Made by a program: the position numbers and the translations under genes. A model generated the notes under the pieces. It ran no database searches, was not told where the DNA came from, and worked only from the letters and a program-made list of their open reading frames with translations. Source: Escherichia coli (GTDB lineage: Bacteria; Pseudomonadota; Gammaproteobacteria; Enterobacterales; Enterobacteriaceae). Taken from it: 64,000 bases of DNA. The stretch is taken from the NCBI RefSeq assembly GCF_003790525.1, contig NZ_CP033635.1; one strand, 5' to 3'. Below, piece by piece: positions 7,531-19,112 of the stretch (positions within the stretch are counted from its first letter, which is position 1; the number at the start of each line of letters is the position of its first letter).

Positions 7531-9542
7531 TGAACGCATCGTCATGGTCCTTGCGCAATTTGCCCTGGTTCAGGGCCACGCTGGCGCAATGGCGTTATGC
7601 GTTACGCAATACCATTGCCATGTGTCTGGCGCTGACGGTTGCCTATTATTTAAATCTGGATGAACCCTATTGGGCGATGACCTCGGCTGCCGTGGTTAGC
7701 TTTCCCACCGTGGGCGGTGTCATCAGCAAAAGCCTCGGACGCATCGCTGGCAGTTTGCTCGGAGCCATTGCGGCACTGCTTCTTGCCGGACATACACTTA
7801 ATGAGCCGTGGTTTTTTCTTTTGAGCATGGCGGCGTGGCTTGGCTTTTGTACCTGGGCCTGTGCGCACTTCACGAATAATGTCGCGTATGCATTTCAACT
7901 GGCGGGCTACACGGCTGCCATCATCGCCTTTCCGATGGTTAATATTACTGAGGCCAGCCAGCTGTGGGATATCGCTCAGGCGCGCGTTTGCGAGGTGATT
8001 GTCGGTATTTTGTGCGGCGGCATGATGATGATGATCCTGCCGAGCAATTCCGATGCTACAGCCCTTTTAACCGCATTGAAAAACATGCACGCCCGATTGC
8101 TGGAACATGCCAGTTTACTCTGGCAGCCTGAAACAACCGATGCCATTCGTGCAGCACATGAAGGGGTGATTGGGCAGATACTGACCATGAATTTGCTCCG
8201 TATCCAGGCTTTCTGGAGCCACTATCGTTTTCGCCAGCAAAACGCACGCCTTAATGCGCTGCTCCACCAGCAATTACGTATGACCAGTGTCATCTCCAGC
8301 CTGCGACGTATGTTGCTCAACTGGCCCTCACCGCCAGGTGCCACACGAGAAATTCTCGAACAGCTGCTGACGGCGCTCGCCAGTTCGCAAACAGATGTTT
8401 ACACCGTCGCACGTATTATCGCCCCGCTACGCCCGACCAACGTCGCCGACTATCGGCACGTCGCCTTCTGGCAGCGACTACGTTATTTTTGCCGACTTTA
8501 TCTGCAAAGTAGTCAGGAATTACATCGTCTGCAAAGCGGTGTAGATGATCATACCAGACTCCCACGGACATCCGGCCTGGCTCGTCATACCGATAACGCC
8601 GAAGCTATGTGGAGCGGGCTGCGTACATTTTGTACGTTGATGATGATTGGCACATGGAGTATTGCTTCGCAATGGGATGCCGGTGCCAATGCATTAACGC
8701 TGGCAGCGATTAGCTGCGTACTCTACTCCGCCGTCGCAGCTCCGTTTAAGTCGTTGTCACTGCTGATGCGTACGCTGGTGTTACTTTCGCTATTCAGCTT
8801 TGTGGTCAAATTTGGCCTGATGGTCCAGATTAGCGATCTGTGGCAATTTTTACTGTTTCTCTTTCCACTGCTGGCGACGATGCAGCTTCTTAAATTGCAG
8901 ATGCCCAAATTTGCCGCACTGTGGGGGCAACTGATTGTTTTTATGGGTTCGTTTATCGCTGTCACTAATCCCCCGGTGTATGATTTTGCTGATTTTCTTA
9001 ACGATAATCTGGCAAAAATCGTTGGCGTTGCGCTGGCGTGGTTAGCGTTCGCCATTCTGCGTCCAGGATCGGATGCTCGTAAAAGTCGCCGTCATATTCG
9101 CGCGCTGCGCCGGGATTTTGTCGATCAACTAAGCCGCCATCCATCACTGAGTGAAAGCGAATTTGAATCGCTCACTTATCATCACGTCAGTCAGTTGAGT
9201 AACAGCCAGGATGCGATGGCTCGCCGTTGGTTATTACGCTGGGGTGTAGTGCTGCTGAACTGTTCTCATGTTGTCTGGCAATTGCGCGACTGGGAATCGC
9301 GTTCCGATCCGTTATCGCGAGTACGGGATAACTGTATTTCACTGTTGCGCGGAGTGATGAGTGAGCGTGGCGTTCAGCAAAAATCACTGGCGGCCACACT
9401 TGAAGAATTACAGCGAATTTGCGACAGCCTTGCCCGTCATCATCAACCTGCCGCCCGTGAGCTGGCGGCAATTGTCTGGCGGCTGTACTGCTCGCTTTCG
9501 CAACTTGAGCAAGCACCGCCGCAAGGTACGCTGGCCTCTTAA
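7530..9542 (+). CDS. ydhK: FUSC/AaeB-family efflux permease
   Basis: 670 aa polytopic membrane ORF; start overlaps ydhJ stop; recognised as YdhK. Confidence 0.88.
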
Positions 9543-10064
9543 TTACTTAATTACACCACAGGCATAGCGTTCACCGCCACCGCCCAGCGGTTTAGGTTGA
9601 TCGGACATATTATCGCCGCCAACGTGGACCATCAGTGCTTTGTCTTTGACTTCATCCAGTGATTTCAGACGAGGCGCGATGACGGCATCGGTAGCTTTGC
9701 CGTCATTATTGACGACCAGTGCAGGCAGATCGCCTAAATGCCCGGCACCTTCTGGCCCTTCATGTTTACCGGTATTTTGTGGATCAAGATGCCCGCCTGC
9801 GGATTCCGCGGCGCTGGCTTTGCCATCTTTGGTGGCTGGCTGGCAGCTTCCTTTGGCATGAATATGGAAGCCATGTTCACCGGGGGGTAATGCTTTCAGG
9901 TCGGGCGAAAACTCCAGACCTTTATCGGTTTCAGTAATGGTGACGCTACCAATTGACTGCCCAACCCCTTGCGACGTGACGAGGTTCATCTCGACTTTTT
10001 CACTGGCAGCTTGTGCGCCGGTCGCAACAACCAGCGCCAGAATGGCCAGACTAAAACGTTTCAT
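9543..10064 (-). CDS. sodC: periplasmic Cu,Zn superoxide dismutase
   Basis: ORF 9543..10115; start placed at ATG 10064 with GGAGG RBS (MKRFSLAILALVVATGAQA...), 173 aa; Cu/Zn SOD histidine motifs. Confidence 0.92.
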   Translation of the reverse strand: MKRFSLAILALVVATGAQAASEKVEMNLVTSQGVGQSIGSVTITETDKGLEFSPDLKALPPGEHGFHIHAKGSCQPATKDGKASAAESAGGHLDPQNTGKHEGPEGAGHLGDLPALVVNNDGKATDAVIAPRLKSLDEVKDKALMVHVGGDNMSDQPKPLGGGGERYACGVIK

Positions 10065-10144
10065 AGGACCTCCGTTCATTGTGCATTCCTGAATAAGTGT
10101 AAACCAGTGACACATTTTTGAACGGCGGCTATTCCTAAAAGTGC

Positions 10145-11041
10145 TTACGGTACGTCGTAACCCAATGCCGCTTTACGGATACGGAACCATTGTTGACGGG
10201 TCATTTTCAGTGTTTCAGCTTCGACAGCTGCCCGTACGCGCTCAATTTTACCTGAGCCGATAATTGGCAGCGGCTGCGACGGTAAACGTAATACCCAGGC
10301 GTAAACCACCTGTTCAATCGAGCCCGCGTTTAACTCCTCCGCCACCACAGCCAGTTCATCACGCAGCGGCTGGAAATAATCATCATTAAACAGACGACCA
10401 CCACCAAGGCAGGACCACGCCATCGGACGAACACGCAGTTGTTGCAGTTGGTCGAGCGTGCCATCCAGCAGTAACGGCTGATGCACCGGGGATATTTCCA
10501 CCTGATTAGTGGCAAGGGTAAACGGCAGGCGTGATTGCAACAGGGCAAATTGCGCGGGCGTGAAGTTGGATACGCCAAAATGGCGCACTTTGCCGCTCTG
10601 ATGCAGATGTTTAAACGCGTCCGCCACTTCATCGGCATCCATTAACGGGTCTGGTCGGTGGATTAACAGCAGATCCAGATGATCGGTCGCGAGATTAATT
10701 AGCGACTGTTCGGCGCTCTTAATGATGTGATCGCGGTCAGTGATGTAATGACCAATGACGTTTTCTTCACGCGCGGTCGTCGCGATACCGCATTTACTGA
10801 CGATTTCCATCCGTTCACGCAGGTGAGGTGCCAGTTTCAGCGCCTCGCCAAACGCCGCTTCGCACTGATAGCCACCATAAATATCAGCATGGTCCACGGT
10901 GGTCACGCCGAGATCCAGATGCTCTTCAATAAAACTGACCAGCTGGCGGGCGGACATATTCCAGTCCATCAATCGCCAGTAGCCCATCACAAAACGGGAA
11001 AACTCCGGGCCTTGCGGCGCAATAGTAATACGCTGAACCAT
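10145..11041 (-). CDS. ydhF: aldo-keto reductase family oxidoreductase
   Basis: 298 aa ORF MVQRITIAPQGPEFSRFVMGYWRL... recognised as YdhF. Confidence 0.9.
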   Translation of the reverse strand: MVQRITIAPQGPEFSRFVMGYWRLMDWNMSARQLVSFIEEHLDLGVTTVDHADIYGGYQCEAAFGEALKLAPHLRERMEIVSKCGIATTAREENVIGHYITDRDHIIKSAEQSLINLATDHLDLLLIHRPDPLMDADEVADAFKHLHQSGKVRHFGVSNFTPAQFALLQSRLPFTLATNQVEISPVHQPLLLDGTLDQLQQLRVRPMAWSCLGGGRLFNDDYFQPLRDELAVVAEELNAGSIEQVVYAWVLRLPSQPLPIIGSGKIERVRAAVEAETLKMTRQQWFRIRKAALGYDVP

Positions 11042-11089
11042 AATCGCTTCCTCTTATCAGATATGAGAGGAGTATACGCAAGATTAGGC

Positions 11090-11329
11090 TCAAAAGAGTG
11101 ATGGTTGCTCCGGTTCATCTGATGACGCCGGCTTATTTGCACGTAATTTGCGCATTAATCGCTGCCGACAAAGGCGCAGTACCTCTTGTTTTTCGCCATC
11201 GCTCATTTTATTCCAGTTAAAACGCTCATCCCGACTGCGAAAGCAGCCGCGACAAAATCCGCGTTCGTCAGACTGGCAAATTCCCCGGCACGGGCTCTGG
11301 ACGGGAAAGAACTCTAATTGCTCCGCCAC
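11090..11329 (-). CDS. ydhL: DUF1289 four-cysteine small protein
   Basis: ORF 11090..11500; 79-aa form starting at GTG 11329 (VAEQLEFFPVQSPCRGICQSDERGFCRGC...) matches the YdhL I recall. Confidence 0.75.
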   Translation of the reverse strand: MAEQLEFFPVQSPCRGICQSDERGFCRGCFRSRDERFNWNKMSDGEKQEVLRLCRQRLMRKLRANKPASSDEPEQPSLF

Positions 11330-11401
11330 TTCGCCCTCCTCAGATAAGATTATTACCACTATTGAAGCTGTTAATGCCCAAAGTAGCAACTTTGCTTGCA
11401 C

Positions 11402-11417
11402 TAGACCGACTGGTCTA
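11402..11417. promoter_or_regulatory. NemR operator (NEM box) TAGACCGACTGGTCTA
   Basis: perfect 16-bp palindrome 15 bp upstream of nemR ATG. Confidence 0.7.
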
Positions 11418-11431
11418 CTACACTCCAACGC

Positions 11432-12031
11432 ATGAACAAACACACCGAACATGATACTCGCGAACATCTCCTGGCGACGGGCGAGCAACTTTGCCTGCAA
11501 CGTGGATTCACCGGGATGGGGCTAAGCGAACTCCTAAAAACTGCTGAAGTGCCGAAAGGGTCCTTCTATCACTACTTTCGCTCTAAAGAAGCGTTTGGCG
11601 TTGCCATGCTTGAGCGCCATTACGCCGCATATCACCAGCGACTGACTGAGTTGCTGCAATCCGGCGAAGGTAACTACCGCGACCGCATACTGGCTTATTA
11701 CCAGCAAACACTGAACCAGTTTTGCCAACATGGAACCATCAGTGGTTGCCTGACAGTAAAACTCTCTGCCGAAGTGTGCGATCTGTCAGAAGATATGCGT
11801 AGCGCGATGGATAAAGGCGCTCGCGGCGTGATCGCCCTGCTCTCGCAGGCGCTGGAAAATGGCCGTGATAGCCATTGTTTAACCTTTTGTGGCGAACCGC
11901 TGCAACAGGCACAAGTGCTTTACGCACTGTGGCTGGGTGCGAATCTGCAGGCCAAAATTTCGCGCAATTACGAGCCACTGGAAAACGCGCTGGCACATGT
12001 AAAAACCATTATTGCGACGCCTGCCGTTTAG
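11432..12031 (+). CDS. nemR: TetR-family electrophile-sensing repressor
   Basis: 199 aa ORF MNKHTEHDTREHLLATGEQLCLQRGF... recognised as NemR. Confidence 0.93.
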   Translation: MNKHTEHDTREHLLATGEQLCLQRGFTGMGLSELLKTAEVPKGSFYHYFRSKEAFGVAMLERHYAAYHQRLTELLQSGEGNYRDRILAYYQQTLNQFCQHGTISGCLTVKLSAEVCDLSEDMRSAMDKGARGVIALLSQALENGRDSHCLTFCGEPLQQAQVLYALWLGANLQAKISRNYEPLENALAHVKTIIATPAV

Positions 12032-12067
12032 CAGGCATTTTTTATCACCAGACGACCGGGAGCCTTT

Positions 12068-13165
12068 ATGTCATCTGAAAAACTGTATTCCCCACTGAAA
12101 GTGGGCGCGATCACGGCGGCAAACCGTATTTTTATGGCACCGCTGACGCGTCTTCGCAGTATTGAACCGGGTGACATCCCTACCCCGTTGATGGCGGAAT
12201 ACTATCGCCAACGTGCCAGTGCCGGTTTGATTATTAGCGAAGCCACGCAAATTTCTGCCCAGGCAAAAGGGTATGCTGGTGCACCTGGCATCCATAGTCC
12301 GGAACAAATTGCCGCATGGAAAAAAATTACCGCTGGCGTTCATGCTGAAAATGGTCATATGGCCGTACAGCTGTGGCACACCGGACGCATTTCTCACGCC
12401 AGCCTGCAACCTGGCGGTCAGGCACCGGTAGCGCCTTCCGCACTTAGCGCGGGAACACGTACTTCTCTGCGCGATGAAAATGGTCAGGCGATCCGTGTTG
12501 AAACATCCATGCCGCGTGCGCTTGAACTGGAAGAGATTCCGGGTATCGTCAATGATTTCCGTCAGGCCATTTCTAACGCGCGTGAAGCCGGTTTTGATCT
12601 GGTAGAGCTCCACTCTGCTCATGGTTATTTGCTGCATCAGTTCCTTTCTCCTTCTTCAAACCATCGTACCGATCAGTACGGCGGCAGCGTGGAAAATCGC
12701 GCACGTCTGGTGCTGGAAGTGGTCGATGCAGGGATTGAAGAATGGGGTGCCGATCGCATTGGCATTCGCGTTTCGCCAATCGGTACTTTCCAGAACACAG
12801 ATAACGGCCCGAATGAAGAAGCCGATGCACTGTATCTGATTGAACAACTGGGTAAACGCGGCATTGCTTATCTGCATATGTCAGAACCAGATTGGGCGGG
12901 GGGTGAGCCGTATACTGATGCGTTCCGCGAAAAAGTACGCGCCCGTTTCCACGGTCCGATTATCGGCGCAGGTGCATACACGGTAGAAAAAGCCGAAACG
13001 CTGATCGGCAAAGGGTTAATTGATGCGGTGGCATTTGGTCGTGACTGGATTGCGAACCCGGATCTGGTCGCCCGCTTGCAACGCAAAGCTGAGCTTAACC
13101 CACAGCGTGCCGAAAGTTTTTACGGTGGCGGCGCGGAAGGCTACACGGATTACCCGACGCTGTAA
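12068..13165 (+). CDS. nemA: N-ethylmaleimide reductase (Old Yellow Enzyme family)
   Basis: 365 aa [31 protein letters not shown]... recognised as NemA. Confidence 0.93.
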
Positions 13166-13245
13166 TCCAACATTGCGAGCGGCGCAAAGCCGCCGCTATA
13201 CTAAAACAACATTTTGAATCTGTTAGCCATTTTGAGGATATAAAG

Positions 13246-13653
13246 ATGCGTCTTCTTCATACCATGCTGCGCGTTGGCGATCTGCAACGCTCCATCGATT
13301 TTTATACCAAAGTACTGGGCATGAAACTGCTGCGTACCAGCGAAAACCCGGAATACAAATACTCACTGGCGTTTGTTGGCTACGGCCCGGAAACCGAAGA
13401 AGCGGTGATTGAACTGACCTACAACTGGGGCGTGGATAAATACGAACTCGGCACTGCTTATGGTCACATCGCGCTTAGCGTTGATAACGCCGCTGAAGCG
13501 TGCGAAAAAATCCGTCAAAACGGGGGTAACGTGACCCGTGAAGCGGGTCCGGTAAAAGGCGGTACTACGGTTATCGCGTTTGTGGAAGATCCGGACGGTT
13601 ACAAAATTGAGTTAATCGAAGAGAAAGACGCCGGTCGCGGTCTGGGCAACTAA
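13246..13653 (+). CDS. gloA: glyoxalase I
   Basis: 135 aa [32 protein letters not shown]... recognised as GloA. Confidence 0.95.
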
Positions 13654-13662
13654 TCTCCTGCC

Positions 13663-13690
13663 GGGCGTGAACCCATCACGCCCGCATCTT
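13663..13690 (+). terminator. possible gloA terminator hairpin
   Basis: stem gggcgtga / tcacgccc with 5-nt loop starting 10 nt after gloA stop; weak T-tract. Confidence 0.4.
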
Positions 13691-13755
13691 TACTGCATCG
13701 ACAAGTAATATTTGTCATAATGCGCGCTGCAATTTATCCGTATTAAGAGAATCAG

Positions 13756-14403
13756 ATGTCCGATAACGCTCAACTTACCGGTCTGTGCGACCGTTTTCGT
13801 GGTTTTTATCCTGTTGTGATCGATGTTGAAACAGCCGGATTTAATGCCAAAACCGATGCGCTGCTTGAGATTGCCGCCATCACCCTGAAAATGGATGAAC
13901 AAGGCTGGCTGATGCCGGACACCACATTACATTTCCACGTCGAACCATTTGTCGGCGCAAATTTGCAGCCAGAGGCCCTCGCCTTCAACGGTATTGACCC
14001 GAACGATCCCGATCGCGGCGCGGTCAGCGAATACGAGGCGCTGCACGAAATTTTTAAAGTTGTACGTAAAGGCATTAAAGCGAGCGGCTGTAACCGCGCC
14101 ATTATGGTGGCGCACAACGCCAATTTCGATCACAGCTTTATGATGGCCGCCGCAGAACGCGCCTCACTGAAACGTAACCCGTTCCACCCTTTCGCCACTT
14201 TTGACACTGCTGCACTGGCCGGGCTGGCACTCGGACAAACCGTATTGTCAAAGGCTTGCCAGACCGCTGGCATGGACTTCGACAGCACCCAGGCGCACTC
14301 CGCGCTGTACGACACCGAACGCACTGCTGTGCTGTTTTGTGAAATCGTCAACCGCTGGAAACGTCTGGGAGGCTGGCCGCTACCTGCCGCCGAAGAGGTG
14401 TAA
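13756..14403 (+). CDS. rnt: RNase T
   Basis: 215 aa [32 protein letters not shown]... DEDD exonuclease, recognised as Rnt. Confidence 0.95.
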
Positions 14404-14495
14404 TCGAGTCGATGCCTGATGACATGCAATGATTCAGGCATCTATAGTGAGGCTATTCCACGCATCATGCATGATATTCACGGGGAATAGCGTTA

Positions 14496-17400
14496 ATGGC
14501 AGATAATCTAAACCCTTCATCGCCCCTGCCGGACGTGTTTTCACCGGCGACCCGCGACTGGTTTCTTCGCGCCTTTAAACAGCCGACCGCTGTCCAGTCG
14601 CAAACCTGGCATGTGGCGGCGCGAGGCGAACATGCGCTGGTGATTGCACCGACTGGCTCCGGGAAAACGCTGGCAGCATTTCTCTACGCCCTCGATCAGC
14701 TCTTCCGCGAAGGCGGCGAAGATACCCGCGAGGCGCATAAGCGTAAAACCTCACGCATTCTCTATATTTCACCGATCAAAGCTCTGGGCACCGACGTTCA
14801 GCGCAACTTGCAGATCCCGTTACAGGGTATTGCCGATGAACGGCGGCGGCGCGGCGAAACGGAAGTCAATCTTCGCGTGGGGATCCGTACTGGCGATACG
14901 CCTGCACAGGAACGCAGCAAACTCACCCGTAATCCGCCGGATATTCTGATCACCACACCCGAATCACTCTATCTGATGCTGACCTCCCGCGCGCGCGAAA
15001 CGCTACGCGGCGTCGAAACGGTAATTATTGATGAAGTCCACGCGGTAGCGGGCAGTAAACGTGGTGCGCATCTGGCGTTAAGTCTGGAGCGGCTCGATGC
15101 GCTGCTCCACACCTCAGCACAGCGAATTGGCCTTTCTGCCACTGTACGCTCAGCCAGCGATGTGGCAGCATTTCTTGGTGGCGATCGCCCGGTTACGGTA
15201 GTCAACCCGCCCACAATGCGCCATCCGCAGATACGGATTGTCGTACCGGTCGCCAATATGGATGATGTCTCATCGGTCGCCAGCGGCACCGGCGAAGACA
15301 GCCATGCCGGCCGAGAAGGCTCCATCTGGCCATATATTGAAACGGGTATCCTTGATGAAGTTTTGCGCCATCGCTCGACCATTGTCTTTACTAATTCACG
15401 CGGGCTGGCGGAAAAACTGACGGCACGATTAAATGAGCTTTACGCCGCTCGCTTACAGCGTTCCCCGTCTATCGCCGTTGATGCGGCCCATTTCGAGTCG
15501 ACCTCCGGCGCAACCTCTAACCGTGTACAAAGTAGCGACATTTTTATTGCCCGCTCACACCACGGCTCCGTCTCTAAAGAACAACGAGCAATCACCGAAC
15601 AGGCGCTGAAATCGGGTGAATTACGCTGCGTGGTCGCAACCTCCAGTCTCGAACTGGGGATTGATATGGGCGCGGTGGATCTGGTGATTCAGGTGGCAAC
15701 GCCGCTTTCTGTTGCCAGTGGGTTACAACGCATTGGACGTGCCGGACATCAGGTTGGCGGTGTATCTAAAGGGCTTTTTTTCCCCCGAACCCGGCGTGAC
15801 TTAGTCGATTCCGCAGTCATTGTAGAGTGTATGTTCGCAGGCAGGCTGGAAAACCTGACACCACCGCATAATCCACTCGACGTCCTTGCGCAGCAAACCG
15901 TTGCCGCCGCGGCGATGGATGCATTACAGGTAGACGAATGGTACTCCCGCGTACGCCGTGCCGCACCGTGGAAAGATCTGCCAGGACGTGTTTTTGACGC
16001 CACGCTGGATATGCTTTCCGGGCGCTATCCCTCTGGCGATTTTTCTGCTTTTCGCCCCAAACTGGTCTGGAACAGGGAGACCGGGATATTGACCGCCCGA
16101 CCTGGCGCTCAATTGTTGGCGGTTACCAGCGGCGGCACCATTCCGGATCGTGGCATGTATAGCGTGTTATTACCCGAAGGTGAAGAACAGGCCGGTTCGC
16201 GGCGGGTGGGTGAACTGGATGAGGAGATGGTATATGAGTCACGGGTGAACGATATTATCACTCTTGGCGCAACCTCATGGCGGATCCAGCAAATCACCCG
16301 CGATCAGGTGATTGTGACTCCTGCTCCAGGTCGTTCTGCCCGCCTTCCCTTCTGGCGTGGTGAAGGTAACGGACGTCCGGCAGAATTAGGCGAGATGATC
16401 GGCGATTTTCTCCATTTACTGGCGGATGGCGCGTTCTTTTCCGGGACTATTCCCCCGTGGTTGGCAGAAGAAAATACGATCGCCAATATTCAGGGGTTGA
16501 TTGACGAGCAGCGCAACGCGACGGGTATCGTTCCAGGTAGTCGTCATCTTGTCCTCGAACGGTGCCGTGATGAAATTGGTGACTGGCGTATTATTTTGCA
16601 CTCTCCCTATGGAAGACGGGTGCATGAACCCTGGGCGCTGGCGATTGCCGGGCGAATACATGCACTATGGGGCGCTGACGCGTCTGTGGTTGCCAGTGAT
16701 GACGGCATTGTTGCGCGCATTCCTGACACCGATGGTAAATTGCCTGATGCCGCGATTTTTTTGTTTGAACCAGAAAAGTTGCTGCAAATTGTCCGCGAGG
16801 CGGTAGGCAGCTCGGCACTTTTCGCCGCCCGTTTTCGCGAATGCGCCGCGCGGGCATTATTAATGCCGGGCCGCACGCCGGGCCATCGCACCCCGCTCTG
16901 GCAACAACGACTGCGCGCCAGTCAGTTGCTGGAAATCGCTCAGGGATATCCGGATTTTCCGGTCATTCTCGAAACCCTACGCGAATGTCTGCAAGATGTT
17001 TATGATCTTCCCGCGCTGGAACGTTTGATGCGTCGCCTGAACGGTGGCGAAATTCAAATATCCGATGTGACGACCACTACGCCCTCGCCTTTCGCCGCCA
17101 GTTTATTGTTCGGCTATGTCGCGGAATTTATGTACCAGAGCGACGCCCCGCTGGCAGAGCGCCGGGCATCCGTACTGTCGCTGGACAGCGAGTTACTGCG
17201 CAATCTACTCGGACAGGTCGAACCGGGGGAATTACTCGACCCGCAGGTCATTCGCCAGGTGGAAGAAGAGTTGCAACGACTGGCACCTGGCAGAAGAGCG
17301 AAAGGTGAAGAAGGATTGTTCGACCTGCTGCGCGAACTGGGGCCAATGACCGTTGAAGACCTGGCGCAACGGCATACAGGCAGCAGTGAAGAGATTGCGT

Positions 17401-19112
17401 CGTATCTGGAAAATCTTCTTGCAGTAAAACGAATCTTCCCGACGATGATTAGCGGGCAGGAGCGTCTTGCCTGTATGGATGATGCCGCCAGGCTGCGCGA
17501 TGCCCTCGGCGTACGACTACCAGAGTCACTGCCAGAGATTTATTTGCACCGAGTCAGTTACCCGCTTCGCGACCTCTTTCTGCGCTATCTCCGGGCTCAT
17601 GCTCTGGTCACGGCTGAACAACTGGCTCATGAGTTTAGTCTCGGTATTGCCATTGTCGAAGAGCAACTTCAGCAACTGCGCGAACAGGGTCTGGTGATGA
17701 ATCTGCAACAAGACATCTGGGTGAGCGATGAAGTATTTCGTCGTCTGCGTTTGCGCTCGCTGCAAGCCGCCAGAGAAGCGACACGTCCCGTTGCGGCCAC
17801 GACCTATGCGCGATTGCTGCTGGAACGTCAGGGCGTATTACCCGCCACCGATGGTAGCCCGGCACTCTTTGCCTCAACATCGCCAGGCGTTTATGAGGGC
17901 GTGGATGGCGTGATGCGGGTGATCGAACAGCTTGCAGGAGTCGGTTTACCCGCCTCACTCTGGGAAAGCCAGATCCTGCCTGCCCGCGTACGCGACTATT
18001 CGCCAGAAATGCTCGATGAATTACTGGCAACCGGAGCGGTTATCTGGTCGGGACAAAAAAAGCTGGGTGAAGATGACGGCCTGGTGGCACTGCATCTACA
18101 GGAATATGCCGCAGAATCGTTCACTCCCGCCGAAGCAGATCAGGCGAATCGTTCGGCGCTGCAGCAAGCGATAATCGCTGTTCTGGCTGACGGAGGAGCC
18201 TGGTTTGCACAACAAATCAGCCAACGGATATGCGATAAAATCGGCGAATCGGTTGATCCCTCGGCTCTGCAAGAGGCGTTATGGGCGCTGGTCTGGCAAG
18301 GCGTCATTACCAGCGACATTTGGGCACCGTTACGCGCCCTCACCCGTAGCAGTTCCAACGCACGCACCTCGACTCGCCGCAGTCACCGGGCTCGTCGTGG
18401 GCGTCCTGTCTATACGCAACCCGTCTCGCCGCTGGTATCTTACAACACACCAAAGCTGGCCGGACGCTGGTCGTTATTGCAGGTGGAGCCACTAAACGAT
18501 ACCGAAAGGATGCTGGCGCTGGCGGAAAATATGCTCGACCGCTACGGCATCATCAGTCGTCAGGCGGTGATAGCCGAAAATATCCCTGGCGGTTTTCCAT
18601 CGATGCAAACGCTTTGTCGAAGTATGGAAGACTCCGGGCGAATTATGCGGGGTCGTTTTGTAGAAGGTCTGGGTGGCGCGCAATTCGCTGAACGTCTGAC
18701 TATTGACCGATTGCGTGACCTGGCGACACAAACCGCGCAAACGCGCCACTATACACCAGTGGCGCTCTCCGCCAACGATCCGGCTAATGTGTGGGGAAAT
18801 CTTCTGCCCTGGCCTGCACATCCGGCAACGCTGGTTCCAACGCGTCGGGCGGGTGCGCTGGTGGTCGTTTCTGGCGGCAAATTGTTACTTTATCTGGCGC
18901 AAGGTGGCAAAAAAATGCTGGTCTGGCAGGAAAAAGAGGAATTACTCGCCCCAGAGGTTTTCCACGCGCTGACTACCGCACTGCGTCGCGAACCACGGCG
19001 GCGCTTTACGCTGACAGAAGTGAATGATCTACCAGTCCGACAAACGCCGATGTTTACGCTGCTGCGTGAGGCGGGATTTTCAAGTTCGCCACAAGGGCTG
19101 GATTGGGAATAG
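14496..19112 (+). CDS. lhr: large ATP-dependent helicase Lhr
   Basis: 1538 aa ORF; Walker A APTGSGKT, DEVH box, long C-terminal extension; recognised as Lhr. Confidence 0.93.
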   Translation: MADNLNPSSPLPDVFSPATRDWFLRAFKQPTAVQSQTWHVAARGEHALVIAPTGSGKTLAAFLYALDQLFREGGEDTREAHKRKTSRILYISPIKALGTDVQRNLQIPLQGIADERRRRGETEVNLRVGIRTGDTPAQERSKLTRNPPDILITTPESLYLMLTSRARETLRGVETVIIDEVHAVAGSKRGAHLALSLERLDALLHTSAQRIGLSATVRSASDVAAFLGGDRPVTVVNPPTMRHPQIRIVVPVANMDDVSSVASGTGEDSHAGREGSIWPYIETGILDEVLRHRSTIVFTNSRGLAEKLTARLNELYAARLQRSPSIAVDAAHFESTSGATSNRVQSSDIFIARSHHGSVSKEQRAITEQALKSGELRCVVATSSLELGIDMGAVDLVIQVATPLSVASGLQRIGRAGHQVGGVSKGLFFPRTRRDLVDSAVIVECMFAGRLENLTPPHNPLDVLAQQTVAAAAMDALQVDEWYSRVRRAAPWKDLPGRVFDATLDMLSGRYPSGDFSAFRPKLVWNRETGILTARPGAQLLAVTSGGTIPDRGMYSVLLPEGEEQAGSRRVGELDEEMVYESRVNDIITLGATSWRIQQITRDQVIVTPAPGRSARLPFWRGEGNGRPAELGEMIGDFLHLLADGAFFSGTIPPWLAEENTIANIQGLIDEQRNATGIVPGSRHLVLERCRDEIGDWRIILHSPYGRRVHEPWALAIAGRIHALWGADASVVASDDGIVARIPDTDGKLPDAAIFLFEPEKLLQIVREAVGSSALFAARFRECAARALLMPGRTPGHRTPLWQQRLRASQLLEIAQGYPDFPVILETLRECLQDVYDLPALERLMRRLNGGEIQISDVTTTTPSPFAASLLFGYVAEFMYQSDAPLAERRASVLSLDSELLRNLLGQVEPGELLDPQVIRQVEEELQRLAPGRRAKGEEGLFDLLRELGPMTVEDLAQRHTGSSEEIASYLENLLAVKRIFPTMISGQERLACMDDAARLRDALGVRLPESLPEIYLHRVSYPLRDLFLRYLRAHALVTAEQLAHEFSLGIAIVEEQLQQLREQGLVMNLQQDIWVSDEVFRRLRLRSLQAAREATRPVAATTYARLLLERQGVLPATDGSPALFASTSPGVYEGVDGVMRVIEQLAGVGLPASLWESQILPARVRDYSPEMLDELLATGAVIWSGQKKLGEDDGLVALHLQEYAAESFTPAEADQANRSALQQAIIAVLADGGAWFAQQISQRICDKIGESVDPSALQEALWALVWQGVITSDIWAPLRALTRSSSNARTSTRRSHRARRGRPVYTQPVSPLVSYNTPKLAGRWSLLQVEPLNDTERMLALAENMLDRYGIISRQAVIAENIPGGFPSMQTLCRSMEDSGRIMRGRFVEGLGGAQFAERLTIDRLRDLATQTAQTRHYTPVALSANDPANVWGNLLPWPAHPATLVPTRRAGALVVVSGGKLLLYLAQGGKKMLVWQEKEELLAPEVFHALTTALRREPRRRFTLTEVNDLPVRQTPMFTLLREAGFSSSPQGLDWE

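Follow-up and report, generated by a model that had tools for sequence, protein, structure and literature searches.

We concluded that the inverted repeat between the divergent genes ydhL and nemR of Escherichia coli is the NemR operator of the nemR-nemA-gloA promoter, that it would act by occlusion from within the spacer between the -35 and -10 hexamers, and that the transcript made from this promoter is leaderless; we put the probability of this reading at about 93%. The repeat, here termed the NemR box or O1 (TAGACCGACTGGTCTA, read as TAGACC-GACT-GGTCTA; positions 11402-11417, no strand assigned), lies in the 102-bp ydhL/nemR intergenic region (11330-11431) of the 64,000-nt stretch of DNA that was analysed (the window). 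O1 is an already characterised operator and the initial annotation located and named it correctly: the core promoter is identical to that of K-12, nemR is the single target of NemR in SELEX, and mutations in the operator cause derepression. That annotation omitted that the repeat is imperfect, that RutR binds the same 16-mer and that the transcript is leaderless. The operator, the repressor and the inducers are textbook E. coli K-12 biology and have little discovery value; the re-analysis corrects the description of the site to an imperfect repeat that is common to NemR and RutR, lies within the promoter spacer and precedes a leaderless transcript. That the box lies within the promoter spacer, and that it would work by occlusion, is what we infer here.

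The region 11000-12100 is 100% identical to E. coli SMS-3-5 in genome comparison and turns up in 5425 of 5426 complete E. coli genomes. In the RefSeq annotation ydhK (plus strand) ends at 9542 and sodC (minus strand) starts at 9543, followed on the minus strand by ydhF (10145-11041, Pfam Aldo_ket_red) and ydhL (11090-11329), the divergent neighbor of nemR. The plus strand carries nemR (11432-12031, ATG at 11432), which encodes a TetR-family repressor of 199 aa, nemA (12068-13165), the operon member encoding an Old Yellow Enzyme-type N-ethylmaleimide reductase (Pfam Oxidored_FMN), gloA (13246-13653) encoding glyoxalase I (Pfam Glyoxalase), and the RefSeq-annotated rnt (13756-14403) and lhr (14496-19112). 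NemR matches Pfam TetR_N and TetR_C_13 as well as PDB 4YZE, E. coli NemR (E = 2.5e-124). YdhL matches Pfam DUF1289 with a CX3CX7CX2C motif and its gene starts with GTG at 11329-11327 on the minus strand, in agreement with its previous description as a four-cysteine DUF1289 protein with a GTG start. It has been reported that gloA is transcribed via read-through from the nemRA promoter (Ozyamak 2013, PMC3739934), and that deletion of nemR raises nemA 15-fold and, by read-through, gloA 5-fold (PMC3739934). An Rfam search of 9000-15000 found no RNA family.

O1 had been called a perfect 16-bp palindrome, which is wrong. The reverse complement of TAGACCGACTGGTCTA is TAGACCAGTCGGTCTA, and the symmetry is confined to the outer 6+6 bases (TAGACC/GGTCTA): the half-sites at 11402-11407 and 11412-11417 form a perfect inverted repeat around a 4-bp asymmetric GACT center. 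Fourteen nt separate the box from the nemR ATG and the box center is 22.5 nt 5' of the ATG. The window has 22 perfect 6-N4-6 inverted repeats, a number not above chance (about 15.6 expected). Even with 3 mismatches allowed, it contains no further copy of the exact 16-mer (0.12 expected), and a degenerate search for TWGACC-N4-GGTCWA over the window gave 9 matches against 5.4 expected, all except O1 with 2 mismatches. The significance of O1 derives from its position, its conservation and published experiments, and not from its symmetry. The sole true perfect 16-bp palindrome in the window is CCCTGAAATTTCAGGG (36467-36482) at the ydhW/ydhX junction, about one such palindrome being expected by chance. 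We also noticed a 16-nt direct repeat of the form AGCAACTTTGC(T/C)TGCA, one copy of which (AGCAACTTTGCTTGCA, 11385-11400) runs over both -35 hexamers of the intergenic region, the other (15/16, 11484-11499) lying inside nemR in codons 18-23 around Cys21. Although it looked non-random, it was rejected as a functional element, being neither conserved nor covarying outside Escherichia, and is probably a coincidence.

The nemRA -35 hexamer TTGCAC (11396-11401, plus strand) is a conserved block that abuts the 5' side of the box, and the -10 hexamer TACACT (11419-11424, plus strand), a TAnAnT block 1 nt past the box, follows the -35 after 17 bp, 16 of which are occupied by O1. A RegulonDB-derived table lists a single start for nemRA, with the 5'-UTR string 'GCA'; this start, the G at 11430 on the plus strand, places O1 at -28 to -13. 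Because the recorded start leaves a 2-nt leader, which has no Shine-Dalgarno sequence, the nemR mRNA is leaderless. The start at 11430 agrees with the -10 position and with the conserved spacing from the -10 to the ATG, which is 6-8 nt across 36 loci (7 in E. coli) with no Shine-Dalgarno-like block in between. Leaderless chromosomal mRNAs are rare in E. coli. A scan of 11000-12200 for consensus sigma-70 promoters called none; the nemRA promoter was missed because its -35 matches the consensus at only 3 of 6 positions, and its elements were placed from the phylogenetic footprint and the RegulonDB start. In Yersinia a terminator hairpin directly abuts the nemR -35, and therefore no upstream promoter serves nemR there.

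The 42-bp core from the -35 to the ATG is found unchanged (100% identity) in 5066 of 5424 complete E. coli genomes, K-12 W3110 among them, whereas over the surrounding 1.1 kb only 117 reach 99% identity or more. Over the whole intergenic region only 2 of 102 positions differ from K-12 W3110, both outside the box, the -35 and the -10, and the spacer length is identical. Among the sampled E. coli variants the box is invariant and the differences fall elsewhere. The comparison was then carried beyond the species by a NemR scan with one genome per species, which gave 80 loci in which NemR, YdhL, YdhF, NemA and GloA were mapped by tblastn; the ortholog set comprises the 36 loci in which nemA follows a NemR gene with 50% protein identity or more. 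All 36 have TAGACC-N4-GGTCTA, with 12/12 half-site bases in 29 loci and 10-11/12 in the others. Measured from the start of the tblastn match, the box center falls at -21.5 to -23.5 in 34 of the 36 loci; it lies farther out, at -25.5 to -52.5, in L026, L033 and L035, whose tblastn matches begin only after residue 1. The only conserved blocks in the 36-locus alignment are cTTGCA, the box and TAnAnT. The cTTGCA block (TTGACC in Yersinia and Serratia) is 90% conserved directly 5' of the box; the upstream sequence varies, and so do the four central bases, which drift among GACT, GAAC, GAAT, GATT, AATC, GATC, GAGC, GTTC and AACC.

Published work supports the same assignment. In genomic SELEX nemR was the single NemR target, giving the regulon nemRA-gloA (PMC5934670), and a passage in PMC13178969, citing Gray 2013, states that NemR represses its own promoter via an inverted-repeat operator. 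Glyoxal resistance arises from an operator point mutation (review), and deletion of rutE is suppressed by nemR mutations as well as by a nemR promoter mutation 'predicted to eliminate repression' (PMC3045373). Evolution in methylglyoxal-rich honey selected a G-to-A change at intergenic (-84/-19) in four independent K-12 lines (PMC8127710 supplement). Counting 84 nt from 11329 and 19 nt back from 11432 leads in both cases to 11413 (plus strand), since the K-12 spacer is also 102 bp; this is box position 12, the second G of GGTCTA in the right half-site. RNA polymerase ChIP-chip after methylglyoxal treatment showed a peak at the probe covering the box. The window has the same box, -35, -10, ATG spacing and flanking genes as the nemRA-gloA locus of K-12; the operator is without differences, and this SMS-3-5-like strain departs from K-12 in a few residues of NemR and at the two intergenic nucleotides mentioned above, which are outside the box. 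The K-12 box is reportedly the subject of the primary footprinting papers (Umezawa 2008, Gray 2013 and Lee 2013), and the exact NemR-protected bases were taken here from secondary sources and genetics.

The arrangement suggests a simple mode of control. A NemR dimer of the TetR family binds TAGACC-N4-GGTCTA, where it would fill 16 of the 17 bp between the hexamers and thus exclude sigma-70 RNA polymerase. According to the literature, NemR loses affinity for DNA when its cysteines are modified by electrophiles (N-ethylmaleimide, methylglyoxal, glyoxal, quinones) or by hypochlorous acid, and the freed promoter would then fire 2 nt before the ATG to give a leaderless nemR-nemA(-gloA) transcript. 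TetR with tetO, and tetR of Tn1721, offer a parallel: like NemR, TetR is a TetR-family repressor that autoregulates via an inverted repeat inside its own core promoter, and the Tn1721 tetR mRNA is a classic leaderless transcript, as nemRA is likewise recorded to be. The tet operators of Tn10 control two divergent, overlapping promoters. Unlike at those operators, the divergent ydhL promoter in the window does not overlap the box, and the inducer acts on NemR by covalent cysteine modification, whereas Tet induction is by reversible ligand binding. AltR of Pantoea ananatis, a NemR homologue, also represses its own promoter via an inverted repeat (CAATCTAC-N6-GTAGATTG) that overlaps the -10, and like NemR it senses thiol-reactive compounds by a conserved cysteine; however, half-site sequence and spacing differ, and the inducers of AltR are thiosulfinates and not NEM or diamide.

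It had been proposed that ydhL, sharing the intergenic region, might be co-regulated. We find this unsupported, since ydhL has its own conserved -35 and -10, the box is about 55 bp off, and the box tracks nemR when the two genes part. The predicted ydhL -35 (TTGCTA, 11384-11389, minus strand) stands back-to-back with the nemR -35, 6 bp apart, and is followed after a 17-bp spacer by the predicted -10 (TTCAAT, 11361-11366, minus strand), a predicted start near 11354 and a Shine-Dalgarno sequence at 11341-11334, all on the minus strand. The upstream alignment of ydhL from 29 loci shows the same elements, a cTTGC block, a gap of 17 bp in E. coli, a CTTCAaT block (90% conserved) and the GGAGG of the ribosome-binding site, and they are kept also where nemR is non-adjacent. 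A C lies just upstream of the predicted ydhL -10. O1 overlaps the nemRA core promoter only: its center is about 55 bp (-55.5) upstream of the predicted ydhL start, outside the predicted ydhL core promoter.

The separation of the two genes was seen in 10 loci, where ydhL and nemR lie 0.9-1.9 kb apart and the box remains with nemR, 22 nt before it. Upstream of the separated ydhL genes in these 10 loci no box was found, the best match of 7-9/12 being at background level. The intervening gene encodes an EptA/EptB-type phosphoethanolamine transferase or is a truncated copy of one (Enterobacter, Cedecea, Erwinia, Mangrovibacter, Yersinia). The full-size gene (about 547 aa, co-directional with nemR, gap of about 1.8-1.9 kb) is found in L006, L009, L010, L026, L028, L029, L031, L032 and L034, and the truncated copy in L023; in Enterobacter the stop codon of the transferase gene runs into the NemR box, covering its first bases. 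Where the fetched flanks gave no ydhL match, as in Providencia, Budvicia and a member of the Neisseriaceae (L021, L025, L030), nemRA still has its box. In E. albertii (L003) a 120-bp element that is probably ERIC/IRU-like is inserted at 2292-2411 of that locus in the ydhL leader, between the -10 and the ribosome-binding site, and the NemR box and both promoters are intact despite the insert.

One alternative is that the operator is bidirectional, so that bound NemR also represses the divergent ydhL (and ydhF) and makes them part of the electrophile response. The common 102-bp spacer and the 6 bp between the -35 hexamers are in keeping with it, as are the recovery of ydhL overexpression in both H2O2 and HOCl resistance screens (literature) and the aldo-keto reductase encoded by ydhF, which always follows ydhL and fits a carbonyl-detoxification theme. 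One RNA polymerase ChIP-chip experiment also found a methylglyoxal-induced region overlapping 60% of ydhL; this overlap, however, is within the array resolution and too coarse to decide ydhL induction. Against these points stand the ydhL promoter that is conserved even without an adjacent nemR, the -55.5 position of the box center, the behavior of the box in the 10 separated loci and in the three with no ydhL match, and the SELEX data and regulon lists, which give only nemRA-gloA (PMC5934670). We regard the bidirectional operator as improbable, and the comparison of loci speaks against ydhL as a conserved NemR target and against entering it in the NemR regulon on adjacency alone.

In E. coli itself an influence on ydhL via promoter interference or supercoiling coupling is possible. 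In the mapped loci ydhL is always followed by ydhF, 48 bp away, and the two genes probably form an operon. Because ydhF always follows ydhL and ydhL was recovered in the H2O2 and HOCl screens, a functional theme common to ydhL-ydhF and the nemRA operon is plausible even without joint regulation. A published sigma-54 ChIP-seq site, IA14 (CTGGTTCAGTGTTTGCT), maps to 11703-11719 on the minus strand, antisense inside nemR and directed toward ydhL; from there an alternative ydhL transcript could arise that runs across the NemR box.

A second alternative, which we consider very unlikely, assigns the site mainly to RutR, as an operator that would tie nemA to pyrimidine catabolism; the reasoning is that NemA can replace the Rut reductase RutE. 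The exact 16-mer is an in vivo RutR target in ChIP-chip, listed at ydhM, -22.5, with 11 of 14 consensus positions (PMC2475637). By elimination it belongs to the 16 RutR targets bound with high affinity in vitro by EMSA, as it is absent from the four that were weakly bound (PMC2475637). RegulonDB places nemR in the RutR regulon (PMC5934670), and the rutE suppressors described above lie in nemR and its promoter. However, transcript effects in the RutR study were detected only at ves (PMC2475637), and according to a later review RutR, although bound, has no regulatory effect on nemRA-gloA. The RutR box consensus TTGACCAnnTGGTCAA is, like the NemR box, a 16-bp site for a TetR-family dimer, but has T and A where the NemR box has A and T (positions 2 and 15); the orthologs keep TAGACC/GGTCTA and not TTGACC/GGTCAA, and the box adjoins nemR-like genes across Proteobacteria. 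NemR is therefore not the only occupant of the site. The box is common to two TetR-family proteins, of which NemR is, by these reports, the functional one. That O1 is a chance inverted repeat without function, as the unexceptional number of 6-N4-6 repeats in the window would allow, has a negligible probability and is already refuted by conservation and genetics: sequence and position are kept in 36/36 ortholog loci down to 50% protein identity, the box is invariant in the sampled E. coli variants, and a mutation within it was selected repeatedly.

In other species a second box of the NemR type lies before nemA. Outside the nemR upstream windows TAGAC-N(4-7)-GTCTA gave 53 matches in 433 kb against about 2 expected, and nearly all of them sit 600-740 bp past the start codon of the regulator. 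They define a 15-bp box, O2 (TAGACGACYGGTCTA, TAG(A/T)CGACYGGTCTA), found within 3 mismatches in 36 of 36 non-E. coli ortholog loci (L004-L036 and L085-L087, including Salmonella enterica, S. bongori and Citrobacter koseri, which were fetched separately). Its center is at -18 to -26 from the nemA ATG in these 36 loci, and it is flanked by the nemA ribosome-binding site on one side and by a hairpin with T-run, located at the nemR stop codon, on the other; the center aside, it differs from O1 by having one C fewer. E. coli has kept the terminator-like hairpin and T-run (12019-12036, plus strand), which overlaps the nemR stop codon and has a conserved homologue in the orthologs, and retains of O2 only a remnant (CAGACGACCGGGAGC, 12049-12063, plus strand) in which the left half survives but the right one is deleted. 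The remnant has 5 mismatches to TAGACGACCGGTCTA; compared with Salmonella, 14 bp (GTCTACTTATATCA) and 8 bp of the T-run are lost, and what remains (CAGACGACCGG) is joined to the GGAG of the nemA ribosome-binding site and thus fused to the nemA Shine-Dalgarno sequence. The window has no 15-bp box within 3 mismatches. The truncated form is fixed in the species, with 5240 of 5425 genomes identical over 71 bp; within Escherichia the comparison covers E. coli, as the E. albertii locus ends inside nemR and a YdhL look-up returned only E. coli-type contigs.

O2 may serve as a roadblock, as a loop anchor or as the operator of a weak internal promoter, all of which are candidate roles. No conserved promoter was found at O2 in the ortholog nemR-nemA spacers; a scan in Salmonella called no internal nemA promoter there, and in Yersinia the two matches were inside nemR or on the opposite strand, none being at the position of a nemA promoter. 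Distant NemR-like regulators (40-47% identity; Vibrio, Photobacterium, Burkholderia, Pseudomonas and others) have the 15-bp form on either side of the regulator gene, the O2-type box after the regulator being present in most of these loci. We tentatively suggest, at somewhat under even odds, that the E. coli box is the lone survivor of an ancestral two-operator design. Should O2 be functional for NemR, E. coli would have a secondarily simplified control of nemA, and what holds for K-12 would not stand for Salmonella, Citrobacter, Yersinia and others. The absence of O2 from E. coli could then matter when NemR regulation and resistance to bleach, methylglyoxal or honey are extrapolated to other pathogens. 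Upstream of several of the distant regulators (for example L038, L041 and L066) the geometry is like that of nemR, with a box, a -10-like hexamer, 6-8 nt and the ATG.
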